A stretch of DNA of 48,555 nt from a virus (IMGVR_UViG_3300008807_000172:1-48555); one strand, 5' to 3'. Positions 12,153-36,084 are shown, counted from the first letter of the stretch. Translations and numbers: made by a program. Notes: generated from the letters alone by a model not told the origin.

Positions 12153-12182
12153 GACCGCACGAAACGTGAGCGGCGAGCATTG

Positions 12183-12193
12183 CTCAACGCACG
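12183..12193 (-). promoter_or_regulatory. Late box CGTGCGTTGAG (copy 7)
   Basis: Exact 11-mer about 30 nt upstream of tail-fibre ATG 12152. Confidence 0.6.
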
Positions 12194-12221
12194 CCCGTTG
12201 CCGATGGTGGCGACCTTTGAT

Positions 12222-12632
12222 ATGCAACCATGGATGGACGACACGCGGAACTCAGCGCAAAAGGAGACGCCTGCCTGGTTGACGCTGGCGGGAGTCGTGC
12301 TGATCTTTCTGACCATGGCGGTTGGGGCAAAACTCGCTGGCCCCTACATCAATTTTCCGGCCGCGGGTGACCGCACGACGGTCTTGGTACCCCCTTGGGA
12401 CGACACCATTCTTCCGGTCGATCGGGCCGGAATGTGGTGCGCCAAACAGGGCGGAATCGCGAAGTTCCGCAAGATCGAGCGGAGCGGCGGATGGCGCTAC
12501 GACTGTGTTCCGGTTGCGCGACCGGTTCCCGTCGGCCTGACGATTCTCAACTATGCAATGACCGCTATCGCTCTGGCTGGAGCCCTGATTGTGATCGCCA
12601 ATTTTCTGTTGGCCGGGAAGTCACGAGCGTGA
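12222..12632 (+). CDS. Membrane protein (136 aa, two TM segments), gene inserted opposite to tail genes
   Basis: ATG 12222; WLTLAGVVLIFLTMAVGAKLAG and GLTILNYAMTAIALAGALIVIANFLLAG. Confidence 0.55.
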   Translation: MQPWMDDTRNSAQKETPAWLTLAGVVLIFLTMAVGAKLAGPYINFPAAGDRTTVLVPPWDDTILPVDRAGMWCAKQGGIAKFRKIERSGGWRYDCVPVARPVPVGLTILNYAMTAIALAGALIVIANFLLAGKSRA

Positions 12633-12636
12633 GTCG

Positions 12637-12834
12637 GTGAGGCTCGCCTGGCTTGTGGTGCTCGCGAGCGCGATGGCTACGGCCGCCGGCGCTCAAACGG
12701 GCCCGGTCGCCACCGTGCCGGACAACAGCGACGTCTTGACGGCGCTCGCCGTGATCGCGCTCATCGCTGGCGGAATACTGCTGGTCGCCCTGTTCGAGCC
12801 GTGGACCTGGGGAAAGAAGAAGCGGCGCAAGTAG
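12637..12834 (+). CDS. Small secreted/membrane protein (65 aa)
   Basis: GTG start; signal-like MRLAWLVVLASAMATAAGA; C-terminal TM and KKKRRK tail. Confidence 0.5.
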   Translation: MRLAWLVVLASAMATAAGAQTGPVATVPDNSDVLTALAVIALIAGGILLVALFEPWTWGKKKRRK

Positions 12835-15282
12835 CTACCGCTCCGTCCGCCAGGTCTCGATCAGCGTCTTGTAGTGGCTGGCCAGCAGGGCGTCGCCCGC
12901 CGGCGTCAGGTGCACGTAGTCAGGCTTGAGGTAGTAGGTGGTGTCCACCGTACCTGTGCCTGTGGCCCCACCGGCGCCCGTCACGTTGGTGGTGTCGTTG
13001 ACGTCGAACATGCCGGTGTTGCCGCTGGCGAAGTGCCAGACGCGACCGGGGTGCGCGGCCGCGTAAGCCGCCATCTGCGAGCGGATCCACAGGTTGTTCG
13101 CCTCGGTGAAGCGGTTGGCGCAGGGCAGCACGTCAACCAGCAGGAGGTCGGCGCCGGTCGCCAGAACCGGGTCGTAGATCAGTCGAACATAGTCGTCCCA
13201 CACGCGCTGGCGGTCCAGTTCCACGAACGGCGCATCGTTGGTGTAGCCGCGAATGGCCAGGGCAACCGGGTTGCCGTCGGTCACCGCGTTGTTCAGGGTC
13301 GGCAGAAGGTAGTTGAGCTGCGGCACGAAGCCGCCTGTCGTCATGTCGACGTTGAACGCCCCGACCGTGCCGTCATAGACGCCCCGCCCGCCGACTGCTT
13401 GCTGGTCGATCCAGGCGTTCGGACCCGGCGACATGTATCCATTCGCCGTCAGGACATAGGTGTAGTCGTTCGTCGCCCGCACGTCGTTGGAATCGCCGAT
13501 CATGGCGATCACCTCGCGATTGCCGAGCGTTCCGCCGGCCGTCACGAAGTCAGCGTACATCTTGCGCACGGCGGCGAAGATTTCGTCCTGGGTGAGCAGG
13601 CGGTCATAGACGATGGCCGCAGCCACCTCCATGTCGTTGCGGAAGCTGGTTCCGGTGATCAGTCGCGTCGACGGGTACGACCCGACGCGGAATCCACTGT
13701 AGCTCTGCGGGAAAGTCACGGCCGACGTGCGGACGCGCAGGGGGTACTTGTCGACCCCATACTCGTGCATGCCGTTGGAAATGCGCTGCCAGACCGCGAC
13801 GTAGCCGCGACCGATCAGGTTGACGCCATGATCCGCGAGGTTGTGGTTCGGCTGGACGTAGAGGTAGCCCTCCTGTCCAGACAGATCGGCGCCAAGGGCG
13901 CCGGTCGCGATGGAGCTCGAGGCCGTCAGGCCGCCGTCGCTGTCGTTGGCCAGGATGACCGCAGGCGTCCCCGTGCCGGCGCCACCATTGACCTTGACCA
14001 GGGCAAGGCGCGTCGTCCCGCTGGTGAACGTCTTGGCAAGCGGTGCAGTGCTGTAGCGACCGATCAGGCCGTCCGAGACGCCACCGGTCCCGAGCATGTT
14101 GAAGCCCAGGCCATCCAGAACCACGCCGTTCGTGGTCCGCGTGCCCCTGCTGAGAACGTCGCCCCAGCGCTGGCTGGCGATGGACGAGAACGCCGCATCG
14201 CTGGCCTTGCGGACGCGGATGTAACCGACCTTCAGATTGACGAAGGCGGTGATCGTGTTGCTGCCGATGTTCTGCGAGGTGTCGACGGTGTAGGTTCCCG
14301 TGCCACCAGTGCCGGTGCCCAGCGCAGTGATCTTCGTGCCGCTGGTGATTGGCGAGGTGAGAGCCGCGCCGGTCGCGGGCCCGCTCGCGTTGGCGCTCAT
14401 GGTGTAGGTGCCGGTGCCACCCGTGCCCGTGCCGAAAGACAGGATCGTCGTGCCGGCAGGGATGCCCGTGCCCGATACCGGGGCCCCAACCACAAGGGCG
14501 CCGGACGTGACTGTGGCGACAGTCAGCGTTGGCGATCCGCTGGTCACATTGTGCGTGCCGACGAACCCGTTGCCGCTGATCGTGGAACCGACCAGGACCG
14601 TTCCAGATGCAACAGCCGAGACCGTCAGGGTCGTTCCGCTGATCGAGCCGGTGACACTGGCCGACGTAGCATCCGCCGTCGCGTCGGGCAGGATCTGAAC
14701 GACCTTCGCCGTGTCGTTGGTGAACGTCCAGTTGAACTTGCAGGCTGCCGTGTCGGGCGTGGTGAAAGCGACCGTTCCCTCGTCCGGCACCGCAACGGTC
14801 TTGTAGTGGGTGTTCAGCGTCCCGGTCATGCCGATGCGGTAGTTCTTGGACCCCGTACCGGCGGCCGTGACCATCGAGACTTCCATCTCGTACTGGACAC
14901 CGCTCTCGAAATCGAAGGTGCTGGAGCCGACGATCTGCCAGGTGTGGCTGGTCGCGCCGAAAACCATGATGGCCGCGGTACCGGCGCCCAGCGGGCCGTC
15001 GGCGGAAAAGCGCGTGATCGCGGGGTTCGTGACCGAGCCGTCAGTGCGAAACTCACCTGCGCCGTAGGTGTTGCGCAGGGGCGTGTATGCTGTCGCCAGA
15101 TGATCCGGCACATAGGCGCCACTGTCGGCGGCCTCCCACATGTAGTACCAGGCCGTTGGCGTGTCTGGCATGGCCGGCGCGGCTGGCGGCGGCGTCGAGA
15201 TCGCCGGTAGTCCGATTACCGAGGCGATGGGGCTGACGATCGGCGAATAGATCGTGGACTGGAAAAGGCCGCGCAGGGGCAT
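12835..15282 (-). CDS. Tail fibre/tailspike with C-terminal SGNH/GDSL esterase domain
   Basis: VIAMIGDSND (block I), GYTNDA (block III), DYVHLTPAG (block V); internal GTGTGGTGTYT repeats. Confidence 0.7.
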   Translation of the reverse strand: MPLRGLFQSTIYSPIVSPIASVIGLPAISTPPPAAPAMPDTPTAWYYMWEAADSGAYVPDHLATAYTPLRNTYGAGEFRTDGSVTNPAITRFSADGPLGAGTAAIMVFGATSHTWQIVGSSTFDFESGVQYEMEVSMVTAAGTGSKNYRIGMTGTLNTHYKTVAVPDEGTVAFTTPDTAACKFNWTFTNDTAKVVQILPDATADATSASVTGSISGTTLTVSAVASGTVLVGSTISGNGFVGTHNVTSGSPTLTVATVTSGALVVGAPVSGTGIPAGTTILSFGTGTGGTGTYTMSANASGPATGAALTSPITSGTKITALGTGTGGTGTYTVDTSQNIGSNTITAFVNLKVGYIRVRKASDAAFSSIASQRWGDVLSRGTRTTNGVVLDGLGFNMLGTGGVSDGLIGRYSTAPLAKTFTSGTTRLALVKVNGGAGTGTPAVILANDSDGGLTASSSIATGALGADLSGQEGYLYVQPNHNLADHGVNLIGRGYVAVWQRISNGMHEYGVDKYPLRVRTSAVTFPQSYSGFRVGSYPSTRLITGTSFRNDMEVAAAIVYDRLLTQDEIFAAVRKMYADFVTAGGTLGNREVIAMIGDSNDVRATNDYTYVLTANGYMSPGPNAWIDQQAVGGRGVYDGTVGAFNVDMTTGGFVPQLNYLLPTLNNAVTDGNPVALAIRGYTNDAPFVELDRQRVWDDYVRLIYDPVLATGADLLLVDVLPCANRFTEANNLWIRSQMAAYAAAHPGRVWHFASGNTGMFDVNDTTNVTGAGGATGTGTVDTTYYLKPDYVHLTPAGDALLASHYKTLIETWRTER

Positions 15283-15587
15283 CAGCGGCTCATCCGATAC
15301 GCGACCGTGCCGCTGCTGAAGCTGGTGCAGTTAAGCCGCCAGGAGACGCCGGCCTCGGTTTCTTCGCAGGCCAGGCTAATCGGCTGGTCCATGACCATCG
15401 GGGCCATGTCGACGCCGGCCACCGGAATCCAGGTCGTGCCGCCATCGAAGCTGCGCTCGACCTGGACGTCCGCCTCGAACGTCCCCGAGACCGAGACATT
15501 GAACCTGCCACGGCGCAGCTGTGCCGCCGGCATGAAGCTGTCGCTGGTCTGGCCAGCGGCCGTGAAGCTACCTTCGACAGTCGACAA
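15282..15587 (-). CDS. Small late protein, paralogue A (101 aa)
   Basis: TTG start with AGGAG upstream; clearly alignable to 31409..31708 (GSFTA.GQ, FNVS.SGTF, ERSFD.G.TW, RLNCT..SSGT..YR). Confidence 0.65.
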   Translation of the reverse strand: MSTVEGSFTAAGQTSDSFMPAAQLRRGRFNVSVSGTFEADVQVERSFDGGTTWIPVAGVDMAPMVMDQPISLACEETEAGVSWRLNCTSFSSGTVAYRMSR

Positions 15588-15637
15588 GGGGGCACTCCTG
15601 CAATTGCCGGAGCACCGTGCGGGGCACGGCGGATAGC

Positions 15638-15648
15638 CTCAACGCACG
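15638..15648 (-). promoter_or_regulatory. Late box CGTGCGTTGAG (copy 6)
   Basis: Exact 11-mer 1 nt after the stop of the 1230-aa gene, 50 nt before TTG 15587. Confidence 0.6.
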
Positions 15649-15649
15649 C

Positions 15650-18600
15650 CTACTGCCCTGCCCTCTTCGCCCGCCTGCCCATCGCATCATCCCGCAACCG
15701 CATCAGGTCCGGCCCATACAGCTCCATGATCTGCTCCTTGGCCGCGCGCCGGTACTCGTTGACGACCGCCTTGATGTAGGCCGCCTTGCCCCCGGCAGGC
15801 CCGTCGGTCATGTCGAAGTAGGCCGCCGAGTCGGGATGGTTGCCGGTGACGACCGCCTCAAGCTGCTGGAAGGCCGGCTCGCCCGCCAAGAGGACGTACT
15901 CGCTGTAGATGTCGGGGTGGTTCTTGAGGCTGACGCTGACGCCGTCGATGCTGAGCTGCTTGGTCGGCATGGTCACGGCCACGCCCAGGTCCAGCATCTC
16001 CAAGTCGATGGTGTTGGCCCCGGCCTTGCGCGTCTTGGTCAGGTTGATCATGTCGTACACCGCGCCCAGACCCGACTGGTAGGTGCGCGGCCGCCCCCAA
16101 AGGTCGCGGCTCGGCGCAAGGTCGTCCGACCCAAAGGGCAAGCCGTTCTTCAGCGTCTCGATGACGCTGGAGGTCTCGCGCATGTACGGATCCTCCAGGC
16201 GGCGGCCCATGCGCAGGGCGCCCGAGAACGGCACGAGGCCCGAGGCGCGGGCCCCAAGCTCACGCTCGACCTGCGCCCCCTGCCCACTGTGCAGCGCCTC
16301 GAAGAAGTCCAGCGTGCCGGCCAGCATGTTCTTGTCGAGGAACGCCTTGCCGATGGAGCCGATGACATGGCTGATCACCTCGCCGTTGTCCTCCAGGCTG
16401 GTCTCGTCCCAGTCGCTGTTGGCCATCAGCTCGGAGAAGTCGCCGACGATGGACATGGTCTGCCCCAGCGGCTCGAACCGGCTGTACTGATACCAGCGCC
16501 CGCCCACGCGGATGCTGTAAGGCTGCCAGTTGACACCGCCGTCGACGCCTTCGCGCTGCATGGCGTCGCGCTGCGCCCGGTTGCCCGGCCCGCCGCCCGT
16601 CAGGTCGCCGTTCATGCTCATCTCGAGGAACACGCCGTACAGGCCCGTGCCGACGGCCAGCTGGGTCAGCGCCATCTCCTTACGGGCGCCGCCGGACGCG
16701 ATGTCCTCCCACCACCTGGCCGAGAACGGCGCCAGCGGACTGTTGCGCATGCCCAGGCTGATGATGTTGGACGGCGTGCGCAGGAAGGGAATCAGGGCCG
16801 TGCCGACCGGGGCCCCTGGGGCGTATTCGTCCAGCGCGCGACGCACGCCCTGCAGCGCCTTGTCGATCTTGCCGTCGTCCCGCGTGAAGGTCAGTTCCTT
16901 GGCGTTGGCCTCGGCGTTGTCCAGCATCTCGCGAGTAGGCGTCGCCATAAGCTCGGCCTGCCGCGCCTTGATCTCGTCGGGCGTCCAGCCGGCCGCTCGC
17001 CCCTCGCGCGTCGCGATCTTGTAGGCGTCGCCCTGCAGGCTTGCCCGACTGCCCATGACGGCGAAGTAGTCGTCGGCCCAGCCGTTGATGGTCTGTGGGC
17101 CCCGGATCACCATGTCGATGAAGTTCAGCACCTTGCCGTAGGGGGTGGTGTCCGCCACATTGTGCGCCGCCGCGCTGAAGGGGCGGGCGAGCTTCGGATC
17201 CTCGTAACCAAGGCGCCCGCTGTCCTCGCGCATGCCCCGCGTCACCCCCTCGGGCAGGGCTTCGTTGGGCCGCCAGCGCCAGGCATCGCGCATGCCGCCC
17301 ATCATCCCGATGATGCGCTGGATCGTCTCGCCCGACTCGAACTCGGTGCCGCCAACGAATCGACCGCCCGTCTCCGCCACCGCGCGGTTCAGGATGTCCT
17401 GGGCGACATTGATCGTCGAGCCCATGACGTTGGCCACAGGCGTGCCCAGGCCGGACAGCAGGCCGTTGACGTACAGGGTCTTGATCGCCGCCTTGGTATG
17501 GGCCTGGCCGCTGGTCAGGGCCAGCGCGTTGCCCTTCTTGTCCTTCATCTTGAGGATGGCGTCGGCAAGCGCATTGGCCGCGTCGGCGCCGCCGGCCGCC
17601 CGCAACTGGGTCTCCAGATCAATGGCGCGGTACGGCGTCGCCTCACCGGCGATCTTGAAGGCCTGCAGCGCCCGGCCCGCCTCGGCCCGCGCGCCGAAGA
17701 ACTCCATCTGGATCGCGTGCGTGGTCGCCGCGCCACGGCGCAACGCCACCTGCTTGGCCAGATTCTCCGGGTCTGCCTTGAGCTCCTGCGCCAGCTGCAG
17801 CAGCTTCTCGTTGGCGCCGATCAAGGCCTGCTTGTAGGCGACCACCTCCTCGGCATTGATGGCCTGCCCGCGCTGACGCTGGGCGATGGACTCCAGCGCG
17901 TCGAGCTCCTTTGCTGCCTTGTTGGTGTCCGCCCACGTCTGCACGCCCCGGCGCGCACCGTCGATGTCCTTGGCGTTGCGCTCGGCCATCTTGAGGATCG
18001 TGCGCTGCACGTCCTCGGGCGTGTTGAAGCGGTGCATGGGCAGGTCGAAGGCGTTGGCGGCCTGGTCGGCCCCGGTCAGGTCTTCGGCCAGCCCTTCGGT
18101 GCTGACGGTCTTGGCCGCCTTGTCGACCTTGGCCGCGCCACGCGGCTTCGGCGCCGGCTTCAGCGCCTTCTCGACATCGGCGTCCAGCTTGGCCGACACC
18201 TTCTCGGCCTCGGCCGGCGGCAGCGTCGGATCCATCCTGATCCCGTTGGCGTCGGCCTCCGCCCTGGCCGCAGCTTTGGCTTTGCGGGCCTCGCGCAGCC
18301 CGCGCAGGCCGCCAACCAGGGTGTCGATGGCAACACCAAGCCCGGCGCCCTCCAGCGCGTTCTTGGCCCGGTTCAGCAGTTCCGGGTCTTCCTCGTCGGC
18401 CGCCAGAAACTCGGTGATCGGGTTGCGCCATTCGGGCTTCAGGTCGTTGAGCAGGGACGACAGGTTGCCGCTCATACCGTCGAACGCCGTGAAGTCGGCG
18501 ATAGCGCCCTGGGCCAGCGGTTTGAGCAGGCTGCCTTGCTTGGCGGCCCAGCCCCAGCCCTTCAGAATCTTGCCGCCGGCCGCCCAACCCGCGCCGAACT

Positions 18601-19342
18601 CGGCGATGTTCTTGACCATGCCGCCGGTAACGGTGTCGACCTTCTTCTCGGCCTGGTCCGTGTTGAACGGCGTCAGGTCGTGCGCCTTCGCAATCCCCTC
18701 CTCCAGGGCCTTCTTGCGGCTGGTCAGGCCGATCTCCACGGGAGTCGACTTGTCGCCGTCGATCCCCTTCCACGTCACCGTGCCCGGCAATTCGTCGAGG
18801 TGCAGGAAGCTCTCGATGCCGTTGGCCAGATCCTCGAGGAGGTTGACCCCGGCGTTGATGCCCTTCTTGAGCCCCACGATTGCGGCGGCGGGGGCCTGCG
18901 GGATGCCACGGGCGATGTCGCTGATGACCGCGCCCAGTCGCCCGGCGCCCTTGGCCATGTCGGCGCCGGTCGGCGTGCCCTGTTGGGGGGCCTTGGCGGC
19001 GCGCTCTGCCTCATCCGCCTCCAGAATCTCGCGCTCCAGCTCGTCATCCTCGGCGGCCTGCTTGACCGCCTCGCGCTGCTTGAAGTCCTCCGTCATGTCG
19101 CCGTCGACAGCATAGGGCCCGGTGCGCGGTCGCCCTTGCAGGTCGATGGTCACGTCGGACGGCGCCAGCCCGGCCAGGTCGTTGGTCGTCGTGTCCGGCC
19201 GCTGAAAGCGGGGGTGACGCGACGAGCCGAGCGGCGCGTTCTTGTCGAACTGCACCTGCTTGCTCAGGCTGGCCTGCTCGGGAGTCATGTTGACGGCAGG
19301 GGCGCCGCCGGTCGCGCCGATGACGGTGGAGGATTCGGCCAT
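15650..19342 (-). CDS. Large internal virion/ejection protein (T7 gp16-position, 1230 aa)
   Basis: Size and position after two smaller core proteins; no catalytic motif recognised. Confidence 0.55.
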   Translation of the reverse strand: MAESSTVIGATGGAPAVNMTPEQASLSKQVQFDKNAPLGSSRHPRFQRPDTTTNDLAGLAPSDVTIDLQGRPRTGPYAVDGDMTEDFKQREAVKQAAEDDELEREILEADEAERAAKAPQQGTPTGADMAKGAGRLGAVISDIARGIPQAPAAAIVGLKKGINAGVNLLEDLANGIESFLHLDELPGTVTWKGIDGDKSTPVEIGLTSRKKALEEGIAKAHDLTPFNTDQAEKKVDTVTGGMVKNIAEFGAGWAAGGKILKGWGWAAKQGSLLKPLAQGAIADFTAFDGMSGNLSSLLNDLKPEWRNPITEFLAADEEDPELLNRAKNALEGAGLGVAIDTLVGGLRGLREARKAKAAARAEADANGIRMDPTLPPAEAEKVSAKLDADVEKALKPAPKPRGAAKVDKAAKTVSTEGLAEDLTGADQAANAFDLPMHRFNTPEDVQRTILKMAERNAKDIDGARRGVQTWADTNKAAKELDALESIAQRQRGQAINAEEVVAYKQALIGANEKLLQLAQELKADPENLAKQVALRRGAATTHAIQMEFFGARAEAGRALQAFKIAGEATPYRAIDLETQLRAAGGADAANALADAILKMKDKKGNALALTSGQAHTKAAIKTLYVNGLLSGLGTPVANVMGSTINVAQDILNRAVAETGGRFVGGTEFESGETIQRIIGMMGGMRDAWRWRPNEALPEGVTRGMREDSGRLGYEDPKLARPFSAAAHNVADTTPYGKVLNFIDMVIRGPQTINGWADDYFAVMGSRASLQGDAYKIATREGRAAGWTPDEIKARQAELMATPTREMLDNAEANAKELTFTRDDGKIDKALQGVRRALDEYAPGAPVGTALIPFLRTPSNIISLGMRNSPLAPFSARWWEDIASGGARKEMALTQLAVGTGLYGVFLEMSMNGDLTGGGPGNRAQRDAMQREGVDGGVNWQPYSIRVGGRWYQYSRFEPLGQTMSIVGDFSELMANSDWDETSLEDNGEVISHVIGSIGKAFLDKNMLAGTLDFFEALHSGQGAQVERELGARASGLVPFSGALRMGRRLEDPYMRETSSVIETLKNGLPFGSDDLAPSRDLWGRPRTYQSGLGAVYDMINLTKTRKAGANTIDLEMLDLGVAVTMPTKQLSIDGVSVSLKNHPDIYSEYVLLAGEPAFQQLEAVVTGNHPDSAAYFDMTDGPAGGKAAYIKAVVNEYRRAAKEQIMELYGPDLMRLRDDAMGRRAKRAGQ

Positions 19343-19345
19343 GGT

Positions 19346-24645: not shown

Positions 24646-24674
24646 ATCAGCATGGTCCTCATGCGCGGCGGACG

Positions 24675-24685
24675 CTCAACGCACG
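24675..24685 (-). promoter_or_regulatory. Late box CGTGCGTTGAG (copy 5)
   Basis: Exact 11-mer immediately after terminator, 29 nt before ATG 24645. Confidence 0.6.
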
Positions 24686-24721
24686 GAAAAGAAAGCCCCC
24701 GATCTCGAAAGACCGGGGGCT
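24686..24721 (-). terminator. Rho-independent terminator after the capsid gene block
   Basis: Stem AGCCCCCG/CGGGGGCT (24694-24701 / 24714-24721), 12-nt loop, then TTCTTTTC on the minus strand. Confidence 0.7.
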
Positions 24722-24765
24722 ACCGCCCGCATGGGAAGGAGGCGCGGGGGACGCGCGGGCGGAAT

Positions 24766-25065
24766 CTACTTCTTGGCGGAGCCGCCGGGCTTGCCGTCGC
24801 CATCATGGTCGAAGGCGGCCAGCTTGCCCTTCAGCGCCTCGACTTCGGCCCAGGCCGCCTCGAGTTCGCCTTCCAGCTCGGCCACCTTGGGGTCGGCGGC
24901 CGGGGCCACGGCTGCGGCCGCACGCGCTTCCGCACGGGCCTTCACAGCCGCCTCGGCTTCCTTGTCCAGCGGCTCCCAGGCCAGGCCGGGAACGAGATCG
25001 GATTCGAACTCCGCCCCCTCCACGGCCAGGCCGGGGATGTACGACTTGGCGCGATACCGGGGCAT
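24766..25065 (-). CDS. Hypothetical coiled-coil protein (99 aa)
   Basis: ATG 25065 (TAATG overlap); Ala/Glu-rich. Confidence 0.5.
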   Translation of the reverse strand: MPRYRAKSYIPGLAVEGAEFESDLVPGLAWEPLDKEAEAAVKARAEARAAAAVAPAADPKVAELEGELEAAWAEVEALKGKLAAFDHDGDGKPGGSAKK

Positions 25066-25499
25066 TAGATCGGCGCCTGCTGGTTGCCCATGGTCACGCC
25101 CGCCCAGATGGCGCCGGCGGTCGCGTCGGACCCGGCCACGGTGTAGTAGGCGCGCATGTAGCGCTCGGTCGACTTCAGCGGCACGCTGTCGATGTTGAAG
25201 ACGTAGCCGGCGGTCAGGGTGGCGGCCGCGATGGCCTCGGTCTCCAGGATCGTGGTCGGCGACGAGAACGAGGTATTGTCGTCGCACTGGATCGCCACCT
25301 TGAGGGAGGTCAGGGTGGCGAACGCCGTGGTGACCTGGATGTGCAGGGGGATCTTGCTCCCCTTGCCCTGGTCGCGGTTCAGCGCGGCGGCCGCCCCGTA
25401 GGGCGTGCCGGCGGCCAGCAGGTCGATGTAGTTGGTCGAGGCCGCCGAAGCGGTGACCGCCTGATCGTCCGAGAAGAGTTGTTGCGCGGAGGTGATCAT
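25065..25499 (-). CDS. Possible capsid decoration/cement protein (144 aa)
   Basis: Immediately after major capsid gene; recalled resemblance to Bbp16-type proteins, unverified. Confidence 0.4.
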   Translation of the reverse strand: MITSAQQLFSDDQAVTASAASTNYIDLLAAGTPYGAAAALNRDQGKGSKIPLHIQVTTAFATLTSLKVAIQCDDNTSFSSPTTILETEAIAAATLTAGYVFNIDSVPLKSTERYMRAYYTVAGSDATAGAIWAGVTMGNQQAPI

Positions 25500-25513
25500 G
25501 TCTGGGGCGCCCC

Positions 25514-26518
25514 TTAGACGACGAGGGTTTCGGTGTTGACCAGGGCGTCCGTCTCGTAGATCGGGATGCCGCGGTAGCTCATGATCTCGCGACCTTCGAC
25601 CTGCATGGGAGTCAGGCGGATGAAGTTGTCGGAGGCGCCCCGGTTGGTGCCGAGGCGGTCGAGAACCTCGAGCATGTCGCGGTTCATGTAGATGACCTGC
25701 TTGCCGCCCGGCACGCGGCGCGACTGCAGCCGGTAGTAGGCGGTGCGCAGGTAGTCGTAGAGGTTGACGCTGCCGGCGCGGGCATCGGACACGTCGATGT
25801 TGCAGATGCGGGCGTTGTAGCGCCAGTCCTTGACGGCCAGCCCGACGTGCATGGAGAACAGTTCCTCCTTCACGTAGTAGGGGTTGTTCGAGCCGTCGAG
25901 AACGCGCTGCTCGCCCTTGTCCTCGCGCTTGATGCCGCCCTGGGTGCCCTGCGGGTAAAGCAGGGTGGTGTGGTCGGGACCCCAGGTGACGAACCAGATC
26001 GAGGTGTTGTCGGAACCGGCGCCGCCGGCCTTGATCACCTGGTTGCCCAGGCTGCCGGTCGACAGGTTGTAGCGGGCGCCCAGGCCCTTGAACTTCTCGG
26101 GCGTGGTCGCGGTGTCGGCGTAGAAGACCGAGGACTCGAACTCCTGGGTCATGGCCTCCAGGAACGAGCGGGCTTCCGACAGGCGGACCTCGCCTTCGCT
26201 CTGGCCGGCGGCCGTGGCCAGGTCCAGCAGGCGCTTGTCGATGCCGGACAGGGCCTCGACGAAGCCGGTCGCGTCATCGACCTGTTGCTTGCTCGACTTG
26301 GATTGCGGGATGCCCTTGTAGAGCTGGCCCCAGGTCACCGACGGCAGACCCGTGCGGATCGAGTGCCGATGGGTCGTGCCCTGGTTGCACTCCACGGCGG
26401 TCGCGGTCTCCATGACCGGCGACAGCTGGGTGAGCAGTTCGATCGTCGCACCAATGGACTGGTTACCACCCTTGTGCAGGTCGATCAGGTCGAAGTAGGT
26501 GCCACCGATACCGGCCAT
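25514..26518 (-). CDS. Major capsid protein
   Basis: 334 aa after scaffold gene; typical size and position. Confidence 0.8.
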   Translation of the reverse strand: MAGIGGTYFDLIDLHKGGNQSIGATIELLTQLSPVMETATAVECNQGTTHRHSIRTGLPSVTWGQLYKGIPQSKSSKQQVDDATGFVEALSGIDKRLLDLATAAGQSEGEVRLSEARSFLEAMTQEFESSVFYADTATTPEKFKGLGARYNLSTGSLGNQVIKAGGAGSDNTSIWFVTWGPDHTTLLYPQGTQGGIKREDKGEQRVLDGSNNPYYVKEELFSMHVGLAVKDWRYNARICNIDVSDARAGSVNLYDYLRTAYYRLQSRRVPGGKQVIYMNRDMLEVLDRLGTNRGASDNFIRLTPMQVEGREIMSYRGIPIYETDALVNTETLVV

Positions 26519-26524
26519 CTAAGG

Positions 26525-27223
26525 TCAGCTCCCGTACATGCGTTGGGCGAGGGTCTTGGCTTCCGCCTCGCCTTGGGGTTGGGCGGAGATCGCCGGGTTG
26601 CTCGCTTTCGCGATCAGGGCCTCGAGGCCTTCCACGGCGTCCGCGGTGGCCATCAGGTCGAGGACGGCCTGCGCCTTGTCCCCGAGGTGTTGGTTCAGGC
26701 TGGCCGACACCGCCTCGATGCGGGCCTTGCCGTTGGCGCCCAGCTTGGCGAGCTCGGCGGTCATCTCGGCCTGGTAGGCGTCGGCCTGTTGCTTCTGCCC
26801 CTGCAGGATCTGGCCGGCATGGAAGGCCACCAGCTTGGTGAACGCCTCCTGGTTCAGGCCGAGCTCGGCCGCCAGGGCCTGCGCCTCCTTGGTCGCCGGG
26901 TCATCGGCGATCAGGCGCACCGGCTGGCCGTCGAGGCCGACGACGTTCTCCGGCAGGTCCAGCTTGTAGTCGGCGGCGGAGGCCGGCACGCCGTCCTTGC
27001 GGGCGGCTTCGGCGGCTTCCAGTTCGTCGGCGCGGGTCAGGCGCGCGGCCAGGTCGTCGCCCTTGGGCGCGTTGGCCTCGGCGTCCCAGTAGGACTCGGG
27101 GAGCCAGGCGGGGCGCTCGGGCGCGGCCGCCGTGACGACGGTTTCAGTCGACACGTTCAGGCCACGGTCGCCTTCAGAGGCTCCGGTCTGAACGTTCTCA
27201 TCCTGGGGTACAGGTTCGATCAT
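26525..27223 (-). CDS. Scaffolding protein
   Basis: Acidic Ala/Glu/Lys-rich 232-aa protein between portal and capsid genes. Confidence 0.6.
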   Translation of the reverse strand: MIEPVPQDENVQTGASEGDRGLNVSTETVVTAAAPERPAWLPESYWDAEANAPKGDDLAARLTRADELEAAEAARKDGVPASAADYKLDLPENVVGLDGQPVRLIADDPATKEAQALAAELGLNQEAFTKLVAFHAGQILQGQKQQADAYQAEMTAELAKLGANGKARIEAVSASLNQHLGDKAQAVLDLMATADAVEGLEALIAKASNPAISAQPQGEAEAKTLAQRMYGS

Positions 27224-27254
27224 GACCGCGAACCTGCGGCCTCAACCCCGCGCT

Positions 27255-27265
27255 CTCAACGCACG
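27255..27265 (-). promoter_or_regulatory. Late box CGTGCGTTGAG (copy 4)
   Basis: Exact 11-mer 31 nt before scaffold ATG 27223; followed by GTTGAGGCCGCAGG, which also follows copy 3. Confidence 0.6.
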
Positions 27266-27270
27266 GTGCT

Positions 27271-27516
27271 TCAGCCCTTCGGCTGCGCCATCTCGCGGAG
27301 TTTCATCACCAGCCGGCGCGCACCCTCGGCCTCGCGCAGGGCCGCGTCCGTGGCGTTCGGCGGATTGCCGGACACCGCCTCCTCCAGCAGGAAGGTGAAG
27401 AGGCGGCGGCCATCGGGTGTCCCAGCCAGGCGGGCGATCACCGTCTCAATCGGCTCCTCGGCGTCGGGCTTCTGGGCCACGACCACGGGGCGCAGGTCCG
27501 ACCACTTACGCGACAC
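27271..27516 (-). CDS. Hypothetical protein (81 aa)
   Basis: Overlaps portal gene end by 11 nt. Confidence 0.5.
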   Translation of the reverse strand: MSRKWSDLRPVVVAQKPDAEEPIETVIARLAGTPDGRRLFTFLLEEAVSGNPPNATDAALREAEGARRLVMKLREMAQPKG

Positions 27517-29005
27517 CGGCGCCCCCCATCTGCATCGCCGCCTCGGCCATCGCCTTCTGCTGGATTTCCTCGTCCGACATCATGACGATGTGCCGTTCCT
27601 TGGCGGTCTTCTTCAGCGCCTCGATGGTCGCCTTCTGGTCGATGGGAGCACCGCCCGCCGCGGCCGCGCCAACCTGCGCGATCATCGCCAGCATCTGGCC
27701 GGTGATCTGCACGTCCTCCAGGTCTTTCGCCTTGGACAGCGGCGAGACCGGGCGGACGTTCACGATGTCGCCGCCCTTCAGCTTGATGTCGGGCAGCTGG
27801 CCGCGTTCCTTGAGGATCCACGCCACGCGCTCGATGATCGGCAGCACCCACTCGCGCACGCAGCGATCACGCGGCAGTTCGCGACGGCGGGTGTTCCACT
27901 GCTTCTCGTCCAGCCACTGGGTCGCCGTCGGCGGCGTCTGGCCGGGCTGCTCGGGCCGGTCCTGGTACAGGGCCTTCTTGACCGCCTTCTTGAGTTCGTC
28001 GGCCTTGAAGATCATGGCGTCGAAGCGGACGTCCGGCGCAAGCGGCTCGGGCGCCTTGGACCCGGCGGCCATGGCCAGCCAGGTGCCGGGCTCGATTCCG
28101 CCCTCGGGGTTCATCACCCCGTCCTCCTCGTAAACCGTCACCGGGTCGACGGTCTTCTGGATGGCCTTGAGGCCAAGGTAGTTGAGCTCGTCCAGCACAC
28201 GGGCCGGAGGCGTCGCCTTGTGCGCCGGGCCAGGGCCCCATGCGGAGTCGGCCTGGTGTCTGAAGCGGCAGGCGATGATGGACGCAGCGCCGGCGCCGAC
28301 CGAGCGCTTGGCGTACTTCTCCTTGCCGTCGACGATAATGCGGTAGGTCCAGGCTTCCTCGCCCGGCACGCTGTAGTCGCGGTCGCAGCCGTCATAGACG
28401 ACCGAGACCTTGTGCCGGCTGCGCTCATCAGGTGCGGGAAAGATCGTCGGCCACAGCTGGTTCAGCCCGGCCGCCGTCAGCTTCATCTCGCGCCAGCGAC
28501 CCGTGGTCGAGCCGTCGGCGCCGCGCTCCAGCAACAGATCCGCCAGTTCGATCGGCTGGAAATGAATGGGCTCGAGCGGCCCCATGTCGGAGACCGCCAC
28601 GGCCATGGCCGAGACCGCCCAGAAGGTGAAGCACTCCTGCGCTGCGTCCCAGTAGTTGGACCGCTCCAGCTCGTCCCAGATGCGGTCGCCATAATCCTTC
28701 AGCGCGACCTCGATCTCGCGCTTGGCTTCCGGCGAGATGCCCTCGTACGGCTGCATGTCCACCCACCGCTCGTGTCGCGGGGTGAATGTGCCGATCATGT
28801 CGGACGCAAAGTCCTCGACCGTCTCCTGCAGAGTGGTGTCGAAGAGGTCGTCCTGGTCCTCGGTGCGGGCCTGCGCCTCGCGCTCGCGGTCCAGATGGCG
28901 ATAGGTCGGCAGGCCCAGGCGCAGGATGTCGTTGATCCACGGCGCGTGCCGGCTGCGGTCCTGCTTGGCCCGCTCGATGCGCTTGAGGATGAGAGGAGCC
29001 GCCAT
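27506..29005 (-). CDS. Portal (T7-like head-to-tail connector) protein
   Basis: 499 aa; position between TerL region and scaffold; general resemblance to podovirus connectors. Confidence 0.8.
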   Translation of the reverse strand: MAAPLILKRIERAKQDRSRHAPWINDILRLGLPTYRHLDREREAQARTEDQDDLFDTTLQETVEDFASDMIGTFTPRHERWVDMQPYEGISPEAKREIEVALKDYGDRIWDELERSNYWDAAQECFTFWAVSAMAVAVSDMGPLEPIHFQPIELADLLLERGADGSTTGRWREMKLTAAGLNQLWPTIFPAPDERSRHKVSVVYDGCDRDYSVPGEEAWTYRIIVDGKEKYAKRSVGAGAASIIACRFRHQADSAWGPGPAHKATPPARVLDELNYLGLKAIQKTVDPVTVYEEDGVMNPEGGIEPGTWLAMAAGSKAPEPLAPDVRFDAMIFKADELKKAVKKALYQDRPEQPGQTPPTATQWLDEKQWNTRRRELPRDRCVREWVLPIIERVAWILKERGQLPDIKLKGGDIVNVRPVSPLSKAKDLEDVQITGQMLAMIAQVGAAAAGGAPIDQKATIEALKKTAKERHIVMMSDEEIQQKAMAEAAMQMGGAGVA

Positions 29006-29337
29006 CAGACGAGATTCACCAGGCTGCCGCTACGGCGCGATCCACCGCCGGCGGATCCGCCGCTCGCCAGGGACTGGGCGACCGCGGCGGACACATTGAT
29101 CAGACCGGGCGCGCTGGTCGAGGTGGGGGTGAAGCCGCCGGTCGCGAAGCTGGCCAGCGAGCCGGAGCCCAGCTTGCCGAAGCGGCGGCTGCGGCGCAGG
29201 GTATCGAGCGACAGATAGTTCTGCGTCTCGTCGATGCGATTGTTCTCGGCGCGCACGCGCTCCTGTTCGACGCGAGCCTCTTCGGCCAGGCGCGCGGCCT
29301 TGGCGGCTTTGGACTCGCCCGGCGCTTTGCTCATCAT
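29005..29337 (-). CDS. Hypothetical virion-module protein (110 aa)
   Basis: Start moved to ATG 29337 (MMSKAPGESK); rest of 239-aa track ORF overlaps the neighbouring gene. Confidence 0.5.
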   Translation of the reverse strand: MMSKAPGESKAAKAARLAEEARVEQERVRAENNRIDETQNYLSLDTLRRSRRFGKLGSGSLASFATGGFTPTSTSAPGLINVSAAVAQSLASGGSAGGGSRRSGSLVNLV

Positions 29338-29774
29338 GCGGATTTGACCTCGAACGCTGGGACTGCGCCTTGAGCCACCAGATCGCGGTAAAGAGCCTGC
29401 GGCCTCAACGCACGGGAATTGACGCCCAGCAGGTGGGCCACGGCCGGCGCGCACCAGAAGGTCAACTTGAGCCACCAGGGGCGCGGGTGCGGCTCGTCTG
29501 GAATCTCGCTGCGCAAGAAGCGAGCATGGCGTGGCAGGGTCGACATCCAGGCCGACCACACCTCGCGGCTCATGACCCGAATGTTGGTCCGGTTGAAGGT
29601 CACGTCGTACAGCACCCAGACGTCGGGGCCGGGGTAGAAGGTGAAGGCGCAGACGTGGCGGAAGCCGGGCTTGCAGATGCGGTCCCACCACCAGCGGTTC
29701 TCGTTGCCGTAGAAGGCGGTCCACCAGACGGATGGGATGGGGGCGAGGTCCGCCTGTTCAAGAGCCGCCATCAC
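29334..29774 (-). CDS. Hypothetical Trp-rich protein (146 aa)
   Basis: ATGA overlap with TerL stop; contains late box copy 3 in its 3' coding part. Confidence 0.55.
   Translation of the reverse strand: MMAALEQADLAPIPSVWWTAFYGNENRWWWDRICKPGFRHVCAFTFYPGPDVWVLYDVTFNRTNIRVMSREVWSAWMSTLPRHARFLRSEIPDEPHPRPWWLKLTFWCAPAVAHLLGVNSRALRPQALYRDLVAQGAVPAFEVKSA
29405..29415 (-). promoter_or_regulatory. Late box CGTGCGTTGAG (copy 3, inside coding sequence)
   Basis: Exact 11-mer, 68 nt before ATG 29337. Confidence 0.5.
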
Positions 29775-31363
29775 CGCCCCCTCAAGGCAAGCGCCGGCCT
29801 GGCGCCGCGATCAAACACCCGGCCCATCTGCAGCGTCTTGATCGGGCGCGGCCGTTCGCCCCCGAACAGCATGTCGGTGCCCTCGCCCATGCCGATGACC
29901 ATGTACTGGAACGCCTCGACGACGTGGCTGTACTGGTTCTTGACGATGGAGTCGGACTTGTAGATGCCCGTCGGGCTGGCCACGTCCTTGAACTGGTAGC
30001 CGCCTTGCAGGCCCGACGAGAGCATGCGGCACGACGGGTCGATGGCCAGGGCCTGCATGCCGTCGATCTGGCGGTTCAGCACCCGCTCGATCAGATCCTT
30101 GCGCCCCATCGGTCCGTTCATCCGGTTGGCGCCCGGCGCCTTCTGGATCATCAGGCCGTTCTTGCGGAAGATCTGGAACGCCGTCGTGGCGTCGGTCTGC
30201 ACCCGGATGTCGCCGCCGGGGTCGCCGAACAGCCGCATGCGCGTGGTGTCCAGCTGTGGCCAGCGGCGCAGCAGTTCCGCCTTGACCATGGGCGCGAAGG
30301 TGTCGGACCCGATGTCCTCGGCGTACATCTCCAGCAGGACGTAGATGCGGCCGCGCACATAGTGGCCGAACACGGCGGCCGGGGTGATGCCGAAGTCGAA
30401 GCCGCCGTACAGGTCGAGCTCGGGCTGAAAGGTCAGCGGACTCCTCGAGACGTGGCGATCGGCGGAAAAGGTCGGGTACACCGCCCTCCCCTTCATGATC
30501 GCCGCGGGCCTGTTCAGCAGGTTGGCGTCGATCCACGCCTTGGTGTTGCCTGCCACCTTCTTGGCGTAGTAATCGCCGGCGTTGCGCAGCCAGCGTAGGT
30601 TCTCCGCCGCCGGGTTGACCTCGTACCGCTCGACCTCGTTCCGCTCGTTCAGCACCTCGATCAGCGCAGGCGGCTGTTGGAACAGGCGCCAGTCATCGGG
30701 CCTGGCATGCTGGCGCACCTGGTCCGGGGTGAAGTGGTCCGGCATGGGGGTCAAGCCGAACATGATCGGCACCCAGTGCAGGGCCTCGGGCGCGTTCATG
30801 TCGGCGATCACGCCGGCCCAGGCGCAGCCGCCATCCTTCACCGCCGGGTAGCGGCCCGTCCGCGACAGGCCCTCGGTGAACATGGTGAGCGGGATGTACT
30901 GCAGCTCGTTGAAGTAGATGCCGGTCACTTCCAGCGAGCGCAGCTTCTTGACGTCGTCCTCCTTCTCCAGCGCCAGGAAGATGAAGTCCGCCTCGATGTC
31001 GCCATAGCGCATGTGGTAGGTGAACGGCGGCGACCAGGACATGTAGCCGAACCCGTCGCCCTTGGGGCTGTCCGGGAACATCTCGGTGAAGGCCGCGATG
31101 GTCGTGGTCTTCAGCTCGGGGTAGGTCTGGCGCACCACCAGCCAGCGGGAGCGGCGCTTGCCATCACGCTGCGCCGGCTGCTCGGAGCAGTGCAGCAGCA
31201 TCCGCATGATGACGTCGCGCGTCTTGCCGGACCCGATGGGCCCCTGGATGATCGCCACCTCCGTGCGGTCGTGCAGGAACTGCTCGAGCACCCAGCCGTC
31301 CGGCTCGAACCGGATGGGCTCGGGCGCCGGGGTGGAGCTACGGTTTGTGGATTTGCGCGCCAT
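29771..31363 (-). CDS. terL: Terminase large subunit
   Basis: Walker A IIQGPIGSGKT; 530 aa; precedes portal region. Confidence 0.9.
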   Translation of the reverse strand: MARKSTNRSSTPAPEPIRFEPDGWVLEQFLHDRTEVAIIQGPIGSGKTRDVIMRMLLHCSEQPAQRDGKRRSRWLVVRQTYPELKTTTIAAFTEMFPDSPKGDGFGYMSWSPPFTYHMRYGDIEADFIFLALEKEDDVKKLRSLEVTGIYFNELQYIPLTMFTEGLSRTGRYPAVKDGGCAWAGVIADMNAPEALHWVPIMFGLTPMPDHFTPDQVRQHARPDDWRLFQQPPALIEVLNERNEVERYEVNPAAENLRWLRNAGDYYAKKVAGNTKAWIDANLLNRPAAIMKGRAVYPTFSADRHVSRSPLTFQPELDLYGGFDFGITPAAVFGHYVRGRIYVLLEMYAEDIGSDTFAPMVKAELLRRWPQLDTTRMRLFGDPGGDIRVQTDATTAFQIFRKNGLMIQKAPGANRMNGPMGRKDLIERVLNRQIDGMQALAIDPSCRMLSSGLQGGYQFKDVASPTGIYKSDSIVKNQYSHVVEAFQYMVIGMGEGTDMLFGGERPRPIKTLQMGRVFDRGARPALALRGR

Positions 31364-31395
31364 GCCCGCGCAGGAGGCGCTTTGGCCCCCTGACC

Positions 31396-31406
31396 CTCAA
31401 CGCACG
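31396..31406 (-). promoter_or_regulatory. Late box CGTGCGTTGAG (copy 2)
   Basis: Exact 11-mer 32 nt before TerL ATG 31363. Confidence 0.6.
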
Positions 31407-31408
31407 GG

Positions 31409-31708
31409 CTAGAAGCCGATGCGGTAGGTCGCAGTGCCGGACGAGTAGGCCGTGCAGTTCAGCCGGTAGCGCACGCCAGGCTCCGGCTCCTCGACCGTGA
31501 AGCTGGCGCCGGCCGTGAACGCGGCGTCGGACAGATCGGGCTTGCTGCACACGATCCAGGTCGATCCGGCGTCAAAGGACCGCTCCAGCTTGACCGTCGC
31601 GCTGAAGGTTCCCGAGATCGAGACGTTGAACTTCCCACTCAGGGCGGCGGGCGGCGTGAAGGACGAGCTCTGGCCGGTCGCGGTGAAGGATCCAGATACG
31701 GCGGTCAA
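31409..31708 (-). CDS. Small late protein, paralogue B (99 aa)
   Basis: TTG start with GGGAG upstream; paralogue of 15282..15587. Confidence 0.65.
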   Translation of the reverse strand: MTAVSGSFTATGQSSSFTPPAALSGKFNVSISGTFSATVKLERSFDAGSTWIVCSKPDLSDAAFTAGASFTVEEPEPGVRYRLNCTAYSSGTATYRIGF

Positions 31709-31755
31709 GGCAGGCTCCCGATTGGAGCCCGAAAGTCGCGCGCGGGGGTCAGGCC

Positions 31756-31766
31756 CTCAACGCACG
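31756..31766 (-). promoter_or_regulatory. Late box CGTGCGTTGAG (copy 1)
   Basis: Exact 11-mer abutting the stop codon of 31767..31928, 47 nt before TTG 31708. Confidence 0.6.
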
Positions 31767-34071: not shown

Positions 34072-34106
34072 CCTTGCTCATCTTGAGGTTCTGGCGCGAC
34101 GCACGC

Positions 34107-34643: not shown

Positions 34644-34652
34644 GGGTCGATT

Positions 34653-35150: not shown

Positions 35151-35152
35151 GG

Positions 35153-36081: not shown

Positions 36082-36084
36082 GTA

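Follow-up and report, generated by a model that had tools for sequence, protein, structure and literature searches.

The structural region of this phage raises the question of why one exact 11-mer, CGTGCGTTGAG, should recur in a single orientation ahead of so many of its genes. The window analyzed here, by which we mean the whole stretch of 48,555 nt, encodes an integrase (7649-9076) and a CI-like HTH protein (3826-4194), and the phage is temperate; it is a podophage of the Brevundimonas type, with the boxes set before its structural genes. The box is most likely the upstream half, positioned in the -35 region, of a near-identical promoter family used by the host RNA polymerase.

Results

On the coding (minus) strand of the window, CGTGCGTTGAG occurs in seven exact copies vs. 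0.03 expected, a degree of repetition that none of 100 shuffles reached, and no exact copy was found in the opposite orientation in the window. An exact count placed the plus-strand form CTCAACGCACG at 12183, 15638, 24675, 27255, 29404, 31396 and 31756; the seven copies in one orientation described in the earlier note thus held up on a count of both strands (7 vs. 0), with one coordinate, 29405, to be corrected to 29404. Allowing up to two mismatches gave 28 matches in the window vs. 25 by chance and, since this count is not above the chance level, the box family is essentially exact. The strand bias extends to related sequences (31 related sources, 388 kb in total), in which the 10-mer GTGCGTTGAG is present 85 times in forward and 3 times in reverse orientation, with ~0.4 expected per strand. 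The conserved stretch comprises 10-11 bp only, the sequence flanking the box and the 29 nt downstream being variable. A longer extension that had been ascribed to copies 3 and 4 belongs to copies 4 and 5 (27255 and 29404) instead: the 14-mer GTTGAGGCCGCAGG lies at 27233-27246 and 29396-29409 in the window, and near the 27255 box it represents a separate partial repeat 9 nt downstream rather than an extension of the box.

Six of the boxes are intergenic and one (29404) lies inside the 3' coding end of gene 29334-29774, just as had been described, and PHROGs profiles confirmed the gene identities assigned before; the distance from the box end to the start codon on the minus strand, previously given as 29-68 nt, was measured at 29-66 nt in the window. 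Short distances pertain to Box 2 (31396..31406), 32 nt from the ATG of the large terminase TerL (29771-31363) and without an SD; Box 4 (27255..27265), 31 nt from that of the scaffold gene (26525-27223), with the major capsid gene (25514-26518) next in line; Box 5 (24675..24685), 29 nt from that of tail tubular protein A (24040-24645); and Box 7 (12183..12193), 30 nt from that of the tail fibre gene (10749-12152), likewise without an SD. These four genes are mostly without a convincing RBS, a GAGGA 10 nt 5' of the tail tubular A start being a possible distant SD. A good SD is found for each of the three long-distance genes, in which it would follow a leader of 17-35 nt: Box 1 (31756..31766), directly 3' of the stop codon of 31767-31976, is 47 nt from the TTG of paralogue B (31409-31708; SD GGGAG); Box 3 (29404..29414) is 66 nt from ATG 29337 of gene 29005-29337, after which comes the portal gene; and Box 6 (15638..15648) is 50 nt from the TTG, or 42 nt from a GTG, of paralogue A (15282-15587; SD AGGAG), which shares 54% identity with paralogue B. 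All seven boxes are on the minus strand. The intragenic Box 3 is read as codons CGT GCG TTG AGG of gene 29334-29774; 8 relatives keep the rare CGT and TTG unchanged while adjacent synonymous sites vary, and we take these invariant rare codons as a sign that the box is held there by selection at the nucleotide level.

The earlier note had made its proposal hinge on conservation of the motif in homologous phages, and the box is indeed conserved, being present in all 15 TerL relatives (58-87% identity) and also in two Brevundimonas prophages (one of B. faecalis, one of Brevundimonas sp.), with a terminase only ~59% identical. These occurrences argue firmly that the box is no local accident and that its conservation outreaches protein similarity. 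Sphingomonas prophages that belong to this capsid lineage have, at the equivalent place 28-31 nt before ATG, a box of another sequence, TGATTCAAC, i.e. (G/C)CTGATTCAAC, together with a clear -10, cTAatyC, whose end is 6-7 nt from the ATG, and a promoter layout of TTCAAC, 17 bp and a TAATTC-type element; the identical geometry is also found 5' of leadered genes with AGGAGG. The -10 of Caulobacter sigma-73 is GCTANAWC, and the Sphingomonas prophage -10, which looks to be of Caulobacter type, resembles it. Leaderless mRNAs occur in Alphaproteobacteria, amounting to 7% in Methylorubrum (PMC9320726), and a leaderless primary TSS has been reported for Caulobacter (PMC4287350).

The spacing between box and start codon was assessed at 41 non-redundant box sites by scoring the first ATG that opens an ORF of at least 60 aa. 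At 24 of the 41, an ATG opening such a long ORF is positioned 29-32 nt after the box, as compared with 2.7% of random positions. When the window was combined with two further sequences (L128 and L130), all 12 box-proximal genes were found to start with ATG, and the SD is depleted among them, with a match of at least 4 nt in 3/12 vs. 37/57 of the other genes. A weak -10-like element, ANNNTGC, with a conserved T at nt 23-24, is present 18-19 nt after the box in the short- and long-distance classes alike; at least three of its four positions were matched at 25/41 sites vs. 26% of background positions, the other 16/41 sites being no better than background. TTGAGN (the last six box bases plus one) ends 1 nt past the box and xANNNT follows after a 16-17 bp spacer, in keeping with the 16-18 bp between -35-like hexamer and -10 expected of a sigma-70-type promoter and, given an SD-less ATG at the predicted +1, with one producing leaderless mRNA.

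In the window, the -10-like element (minus strand throughout) reads ACCATGC for Box 5 (24650..24656, with A at -11 and T at -7 relative to ATG 24645), ACGGTGC for Box 6 and paralogue A (15612-15618) and TTCGTGC for Box 7 and the tail fibre gene (12157-12163); it is weak for Box 2 and TerL (CTCCTGC, 31370-31376) as well as for Box 4 and scaffold (GGTTCGC, 27228-27234). The element is clear at four sites of L130 (cACCAT, cAACCT, cACCGT and cATCAT), with A at -11 and T at -7 from ATG. For TerL, the conserved T stands 9 nt, not 7, before ATG, which makes a leader of 2-3 nt and a true leaderless start equally likely. A sigma-70 consensus scan of 12.1-32 kb found no promoter.

Directly upstream of Box 5 is an intrinsic terminator (24694..24721, minus strand), comprising a 12-bp G+C-rich stem and then UUUCUUUUC, with a folding energy of -27.3 kcal/mol (z = -4.7); it closes the scaffold/capsid unit and matches the rho-independent terminator that had been noted immediately ahead of one copy. 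This order of terminator and then box 5' of tail tubular A is kept in relatives, with stems that are unrelated in sequence.

Discussion

From the geometry of box, -10-like element and ATG, we infer promoter activity, the exact start points and leaderless translation. In our proposal, seven promoters would divide the structural region (31.8 to 9.8 kb, minus strand) into seven units, namely paralogue B; TerL; the pre-portal gene and portal; scaffold and capsid; tail tubular A/B and the internal virion proteins; paralogue A and an 815-aa protein; and tail fibre and lysozyme. TTGAGN would occupy the position of the -35 hexamer and the degenerate -10 (xANNNT, then GC) would lie 16-17 bp beyond it, with transcription predicted to start ~30 nt past the box. 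In the case of TerL, scaffold, tail tubular A and tail fibre, this predicted start would fall on the A of the ATG itself or 1-3 nt ahead of it, and several structural genes thus seem to give rise to leaderless mRNAs that begin with the ATG, which would explain both the obligatory ATG and the absent SD of these four genes; in the other three units, the equivalent start point would yield a leader of 17-35 nt with a normal SD. The short distance to the RBS had been held against a -35 role for the box, but this argument runs the wrong way round, given that the short-distance genes are mostly RBS-less and have their ATG at the expected start site; a short box-ATG distance would follow from leaderless transcripts and hence is no evidence against such a role. 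Among the roles that had been put forward, the evidence favors that of a late-activator or sigma-factor site, i.e. a promoter element.

Because the -10 is weak and the GTGCG upstream of TTGAG is invariant, we postulate that the box is probably read by something beyond region 4 of sigma-70, possibly an activator or a factor that remodels sigma, encoded by either host or phage; among the candidates considered, none was found to read the invariant GTGCG part. An OmpR-type winged-helix protein that lacks a receiver domain (45514-45954) is a poor candidate for the reader, in that its recognition helix is not conserved among the phages sharing the box and a GcrA-like protein replaces it in a prophage with an identical box. 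T4 middle promoters combine a MotA box with a sigma-70 -10, with sigma appropriation by AsiA/MotA. Both systems would have in common a short phage-specific box (9-11 bp) in the -35 region of many promoters, its combination with a host sigma-70-type -10 and a regulon defined by the box rather than by a canonical -35; the geometry, with the box at -40 to -30 plus a -10-like element, is comparable to that of MotA promoters, yet the TTGA core of the -35 is retained here. The box sequence is unrelated to that of T4, its targets are structural genes instead of middle genes, and many of the transcripts are predicted to lack a leader. No Pfam/PHROG match to MotA or AsiA was seen among ~70 scanned ORFs, which include several small ORFs without annotation. 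Pho boxes, the sites of the OmpR-family class II activator PhoB, are tandem 11-bp repeats. Here too the -35 region would be replaced or overlapped by a unit of 11 bp, and the window encodes the OmpR-type protein just mentioned, but the unit is single and, as stated above, the recognition helix varies.

If the boxes were instead asymmetric sites for the prophage repressor, they would block initiation or elongation through the structural genes in lysogeny, a reading that we regard as unlikely. It would suit a temperate phage with an integrase and a CI-like HTH protein, and cluster A mycobacteriophages contain 13-bp stoperator sites which, like the box, are multi-copy, asymmetric, 11-13 bp long, located in short intergenic spaces and in one orientation vs. 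transcription (PMC9283540). Stoperators, however, are repressor sites spread across early and late genes with no fixed distance to the start codon (PMC9283540) and they co-vary with immunity (PMC6550527), whereas the box is invariant across immunity types, even though the operator repeats differ (CACTGCTTCAC six times at 36057-36350 in the window vs. GTTTCGTCAGT at the homologous place in L130). We saw neither co-variation with the immunity repressor nor presence at early promoters; a scan of the window found the boxes in the structural region only, with none in the divergent control regions at ~3.8 kb and ~36.1 kb. Nor would a roadblock be expected to maintain a fixed 29-32 nt to ATG and a fixed -10-like element, with both of which the box is phased. 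As the box overlaps the -35 position, stoperator and promoter roles could coexist.

Quite improbable, in our view, is a function of the box within the transcript, be it as a 5'-end processing site, a stability element or a translational-activator site replacing the missing SD. The box is always on the transcribed strand 5' of the start codon, with SD-less ATGs at a fixed distance from it, in line with such a function, but the folding of 16 examples yielded no common secondary structure involving the box and Rfam 15 gave no match at gathering score anywhere in the window, which speaks against the RNA element listed among the earlier candidates. The strong terminator directly upstream of Box 5 would render read-through RNA carrying this box scarce, and it is in the wrong order for the antitermination or processing signal that had also been suggested. 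[quoted passage not shown] T7 promoters are ~23 bp long, span the start site and require the phage's own RNA polymerase. Promoters for a phage-encoded polymerase, whether T7-type or non-canonical, would be in keeping with the T7-like structural module (portal, scaffold, capsid, tail tubular A and B, internal virion proteins) and, as with the T7 class III promoters and the T-phi terminator, identical copies in one orientation precede scaffold/capsid, tail and fibre genes, with a terminator after the capsid gene and then a new promoter. We nevertheless consider this explanation highly improbable: Pfam and PHROGs revealed no RNA polymerase domain in any ORF of at least 390 aa (fibre, fibre-like, internal virion protein, M23 peptidase protein, tubular B, portal, TerL, exonuclease-like, Prim-Pol, helicase and integrase), in agreement with the earlier statement that no such gene exists and that these are not T7-type promoters; conservation covers only 10-11 bp at -40 to -30, about 30 nt before the start point with variable sequence between, in a sigma-70-like geometry, rather than ~20 bp spanning the start; and the -10 of the sister clade is host-type.

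A host-polymerase promoter with leaderless starts, the reading that we prefer, has counterparts elsewhere. In the lambda cI mRNA from PRM, as in the leaderless mRNAs known from Alphaproteobacteria, Actinobacteria and Deinococcus (PMC9320726; PMC4287350), transcription begins with the A of AUG and no SD is present, as is predicted here, and a -10 element likewise ends 6-7 nt before the start codon; unlike known leaderless cases, a whole set of highly expressed structural genes is predicted to be leaderless and to share one dedicated box. The start-associated sequences of cluster K mycobacteriophages resemble the box in being exact, cluster-specific, in one orientation and 5' of the start, with a strong preference for ATG (PMC3203893). 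These sequences, however, include the SD core AGGAG, are positioned 3-7 bp from the start and occupy the non-structural half of the genome (PMC3203893), while the box, 29-67 nt upstream, without an SD and in the structural half, is not of their type.

Two additional sites may belong to the family. The degenerate copy that had been noticed near 34095 was recovered as CGTGCGTCGCG (34095..34105, minus strand), a possible weak eighth box 32 nt from the in-frame ATG 34062 of ORF 33856-34071, which is ambiguous owing to an SD-like GGGTG close by; the same variant (GTGCGTCGCC) is also found 5' of tail tubular A in a relative, L012. The winged-helix regulator gene (45514-45954) is preceded, at a distance of 100 nt, by a possible ninth site, CGTGCGTTGGG (46055..46065, minus strand), which falls within the 3' end of the helicase gene and is unproven since ~1 match with one mismatch is expected by chance; GTGCGTTGG, with its rare CGT codon, is retained at the matching codons in L131 and L132.

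Box copies and their conservation

On the plus strand of the window, the 11-mer CTCAACGCACG occurs seven times, at 12183, 15638, 24675, 27255, 29404, 31396 and 31756, with no copy on the minus strand and 0.03 copies expected from dinucleotide-preserving shuffles; six of these positions agree with the earlier note, which had placed the remaining copy one base off, at 29405. Every gene of the region lies on the minus strand, and read in the direction of transcription the box is therefore CGTGCGTTGAG. With up to two mismatches allowed, the window yielded 28 matches vs. 25 expected, and because this does not exceed chance, the box family is essentially exact. Numbering the copies 1 to 7 from 12183 up to 31756, the longer shared extension that had been assigned to copies 3 and 4 is the 14-mer GTTGAGGCCGCAGG found at copies 4 and 5, and at copy 4 this 14-mer forms a distinct partial repeat, positioned downstream of the box.

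The earlier note had proposed a search for the motif in homologous phages, and there the box is kept: the exact 11-mer is present on the coding strand in all 15 IMG/VR relatives recovered via TerL (58-87% identity), and the box is also found in two isolate prophages of Brevundimonas, L130 (B. faecalis) and L131. Among 31 sources totaling 388 kb, the 10-mer GTGCGTTGAG was counted 85 times in the forward and 3 times in the reverse orientation vs. ~0.4 expected per strand, and the first base of the box is variable, with C, T or G all tolerated. For the copy within the gene at 29334-29774, the codons CGT GCG TTG AGR are invariant in 8 relatives while synonymous sites of neighboring conserved codons vary freely, and a genome of 67% G+C would not be expected to favor CGT for Arg or TTG for Leu; selection on this intragenic copy acts at the nucleotide level. 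In a related locus (L012, 8930-8960), a degenerate forward box, TGTGCGTCGCC, before tail tubular A is directly followed by CTCAACGCAC, a copy in the reverse orientation, of which just three were seen in the box family, and the two together make up the inverted repeat GTGCGT-N8-ACGCAC.

Promoter-like geometry and predicted leaderless starts

At 24 of 41 non-redundant sites, the box is followed after exactly 29-32 nt by an ATG that opens an ORF of 60 aa or more, vs. 2.7% of positions in the same sequences. This short class comprises the genes for TerL, scaffold, tail tubular A, tail fibre and a few others; ATG is their only start codon, and most are without an SD, a match of at least 4 nt being found in 3 of 12 short-class genes vs. 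37 of 57 other genes. At the other box sites, the start codon is 41-67 nt away, may be TTG or GTG, and is served by a good SD. An ANNNTGC element is found in both classes, with its T placed at nt 23-24 after the box; at least three of its four positions are matched at 25 of 41 sites vs. 26% of background, and all four at 7 of 41 vs. 2%. When anchored on the ATG, the short class displays A at -11 (11/26), T at -7 (14/26), G at -6 (20/26) and C at -5 (17/26), and positions -12 to -7 at four sites of the B. faecalis prophage read cACCAT, cAACCT, cACCGT and cATCAT. A -35 hexamer of TTGAGN would leave a spacer of 16-17 bp. We surmise that the start point would fall on the A of the ATG at a spacing of 29-30 nt, and 1-3 nt before the ATG at 31-32 nt (e.g. 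TerL). Leaderless mRNAs are on record in Alphaproteobacteria (PMC9320726; PMC4287350).

At 24694-24721 on the minus strand, a hairpin with a 12-bp G+C-rich stem and a U-rich tail (-27.3 kcal/mol, z = -4.7) ends 8 nt before the box at 24675, and the order of hairpin, box, 29-30 nt and tail tubular A ATG recurs in at least 10 relatives with unrelated stem sequences. A signal positioned right after a terminator and right before the next gene would be best explained as a promoter. This upstream terminator also speaks against the box being an RNA element, including the role in RNA processing or stability that had been considered from the sequence at first reading, as do the absence of shared pairing involving the box in 16 folded examples and the lack of an Rfam match in the window; we therefore disfavor this explanation. 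We likewise disfavor a stoperator-like repressor site, a function that could coexist with that of a promoter, since the box does not co-vary with immunity and is phased with the ATG and the -10; the box is also unlike stoperators on record (PMC9283540). T7-type promoters, already dismissed in the earlier note, are excluded by short, upstream-only conservation and by the failure to find a phage polymerase, the RNA polymerase signature being absent from every window ORF large enough to encode one.

The predicted promoters resemble T7 class III promoters in layout without belonging to that class, and T4 MotA-box promoters in function, where a box specific to the phage in the -35 region is paired with a -10 of the host, without being members of the MotA family. 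The SASs of mycobacteriophages differ in that they lie 3-7 bp from the start codon and contain the SD (PMC3203893). A literature search for the motif returned unrelated primers only, and neither the box nor the timing of structural genes in these podophages is described in the literature searched. We rate the box as a real, conserved and previously undescribed family of predicted promoters, with the leaderless prediction and the putative reader (i.e. a factor recognizing the box) as the points of interest.

A different box in Sphingomonas prophages

Relatives at ~62% capsid identity are Sphingomonas prophages that lack the box of the window and harbor in the same places another one, (G/C)CTGATTCAAC, in 30 forward and 3 reverse copies, positioned 28-31 nt before an SD-less ATG; this Sphingomonas-type box, TGATTCAAC, contains a GANTC methylation site. 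The -10 of this clade, cTAatyC, is much clearer than that of the window clade and ends 6-7 nt before the ATG, and box and -10 are also found before leadered genes with AGGAGG. The -10 consensus of Caulobacter sigma-73 is GCTANAWC, which we presume the Sphingomonas-clade element to resemble. Taking TTCAAC and TTGAGN as the -35 hexamers, the ATG of either clade lies 28-31 nt past the end of the hexamer, and single relatives have intermediate boxes (GTGCGTTCTT, GGTGCGTTTTT and TGTGCGTCGCC) in this position before tail tubular A. Based on this shared geometry and the intermediate boxes, we infer that the promoter-like architecture is older than either box sequence. The type of box follows host order, with GTGCGTTGAG in Brevundimonas and TGATTCAAC in Sphingomonas prophages, a link that provides a handle on host prediction and on the evolution of promoter specificity.

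Other repeated 9-mers in distant relatives turned out to be coding-sequence noise; the exceptions are the Sphingomonas-type box and one further, separate repeat, that of L085, a distant relative of 49% G+C. The latter locus carries, at 5040-19300, at least 11 copies of a ~40-nt intergenic element comprising CAAGAGGCGGTGA, a variable short hairpin and GAACAGGGA, some of them in tandem (14621, 14663, 14705); no Rfam family matches this element.

Candidate readers of the box

Four phage products were considered and rejected as readers. The OmpR-type winged-helix protein (45514-45954) is kept in position but is only 33% identical across relatives, with a variable recognition helix, and L131 has a GcrA-family protein instead together with the same box. 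The HTH protein at 34653-35189, a candidate late activator, is a small terminase subunit (phrog_2538), in which a Terminase_2-like HTH motif was read by eye. The XRE-like protein (35592-35981) adjoins its own operator repeats, and phages sharing the box have different repeats there, CACTGCTTCAC in the window and GTTTCGTCAGT at the matching position of L130. Finally, the DnaA-domain-IV-like ORF at 44613-44885, attractive as a monomeric reader for an asymmetric 9-11-bp site, has no homologue in other box-bearing loci. Given that the box is invariant despite differing regulators and that its type follows host order, the reader is no less likely to be a host factor than a phage factor.

Taken jointly, these observations allow the tentative reading, which we consider possible but rather doubtful, that the box is a new lineage-specific redirection of host RNA polymerase onto deliberately leaderless structural genes. 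A putative factor, either a small phage protein or a Caulobacterales-specific host protein, would read GTGCG beside a degenerate -35 and turn on the regulon of these genes, and the different box TGATTCAAC would be functionally equivalent in those prophages of Sphingomonas that share the capsid lineage. We postulate that leaderless late mRNAs could sustain phage translation when SD-dependent initiation is compromised.

Between the XRE-like gene and a divergent plus-strand block, the intergenic region (36057-36350) holds six operator-like copies of CACTGCTTCAC / GTGAAGCAGTG, arranged both directly and inverted. The corresponding region of the B. faecalis prophage (L130, 3050-3290) carries another repeat, GTTTCGTCAGT / ACTGACGAAAC; these differing repeats suggest a second, fast-evolving immunity or regulatory switch. 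The DnaA-like ORF encodes ~90 aa with an HTH (Pfam Bac_DnaA_C, E = 1e-6, below the curated cut-off) and sits between a thymidylate synthase-like gene and Prim-Pol.

Phage, host and genome context

The window has a G+C content of 66.8% and carries an exact 99-nt direct repeat at its ends (1-99 and 48457-48555), and hence represents a complete circular assembly of ~48.5 kb; an ORF resembling a cytosine-5 DNA methyltransferase (motifs FAGIGG and PCQ, judged by eye) spans the junction. The late region runs on the minus strand from ~36 kb down to 9.8 kb, with the XRE-like and small terminase genes followed by small lysis-region genes (33332-33922) including one for an Rz-like protein, an exonuclease-like protein (32113-33285), paralogue B (31409-31708), TerL (29771-31363), two small genes (29005-29774), portal (27506-29005), a Bbp19-like protein (27271-27516), scaffold (26525-27223), major capsid (25514-26518), a Bbp16-like protein (25065-25499), tail tubular A (24040-24645), tail tubular B (21948-24047), internal virion proteins (15650-21448), paralogue A (15282-15587), an 815-aa fibre-like protein (12835-15282), tail fibre (10749-12152) and lysozyme (9797-10627). 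Outside the late region lie genes for an integrase, a CI-like repressor, Prim-Pol, a helicase, RusA and an AAA_24 protein, and no tRNA was found in the window.

Judged by its capsid, the phage belongs to the epsilon15/BPP-1/BcepC6B-like temperate podophages. Megablast with the window found no near-identical cultured phage; the best cultured TerL is <40% identical to that of the window, and the best cultured capsids (61%) are from Vibrio phages without the box architecture. As homologues named at NCBI come from Brevundimonas faecalis, B. olei, Brevundimonas sp. and a Caulobacteraceae MAG, the host is very probably in the Caulobacterales. Temperate podophages combining an epsilon15/BPP-1-type capsid with T7-like tail tubular genes, and devoid of an RNA polymerase gene of their own, are common prophages of Alphaproteobacteria. 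For these, the predicted promoters offer a precise testable model (box, spacer, weak -10 and start at the ATG), ~85 ready-made natural variants and two cultured lysogens in which to test it, B. faecalis GCA_042657565.1, with its prophage at ~23-45 kb of contig JBHSLE010000021.1, and Brevundimonas sp. GCA_041911375.1. If the leaderless prediction is true, the phage would be an unusually clear example of a virus making its most abundant proteins (scaffold, tail, fibre and terminase) from leaderless mRNAs, and gene-start annotation in this phage group would improve because the box predicts the true ATG.

Paralogues A and B, of ~100 aa each, are 54% identical and beta-rich by eye, and each has its own box followed by an SD-bearing leader of similar length. 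Between the small terminase and lysis-region genes, a ~230-nt non-coding gap (34424-34652) has a T-run, then GGAG and ATG, at its end, and could hold another promoter or a regulatory RNA. The plus-strand block at 36358-41520, between Prim-Pol and the late region, comprises ~12 mostly unannotated genes, one of them for a pentapeptide-repeat protein (~39929-40528); its position is taken by just two small genes in the B. faecalis prophage and has an ocr-like match in the related locus L132, and the block is probably accessory or anti-defence cargo. Five TerL homologues (P0006, P0013, P0027, P0040 and P0041; 817-860 aa) contain Hint or intein domains (PF07591, PF14890, PF13403), and inteins have thus invaded the terminase of this phage group. 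Within the 3' end of the helicase gene, a one-mismatch box, CGTGCGTTGGG, at 46055-46065 has its codons GTG CGT TGG, including the rare CGT, kept in L131 (8023) and L132 (6802); it lies upstream of a variable regulator slot filled by the winged-helix protein (window and L132) or the GcrA-family protein (L131), and may be an internal promoter.
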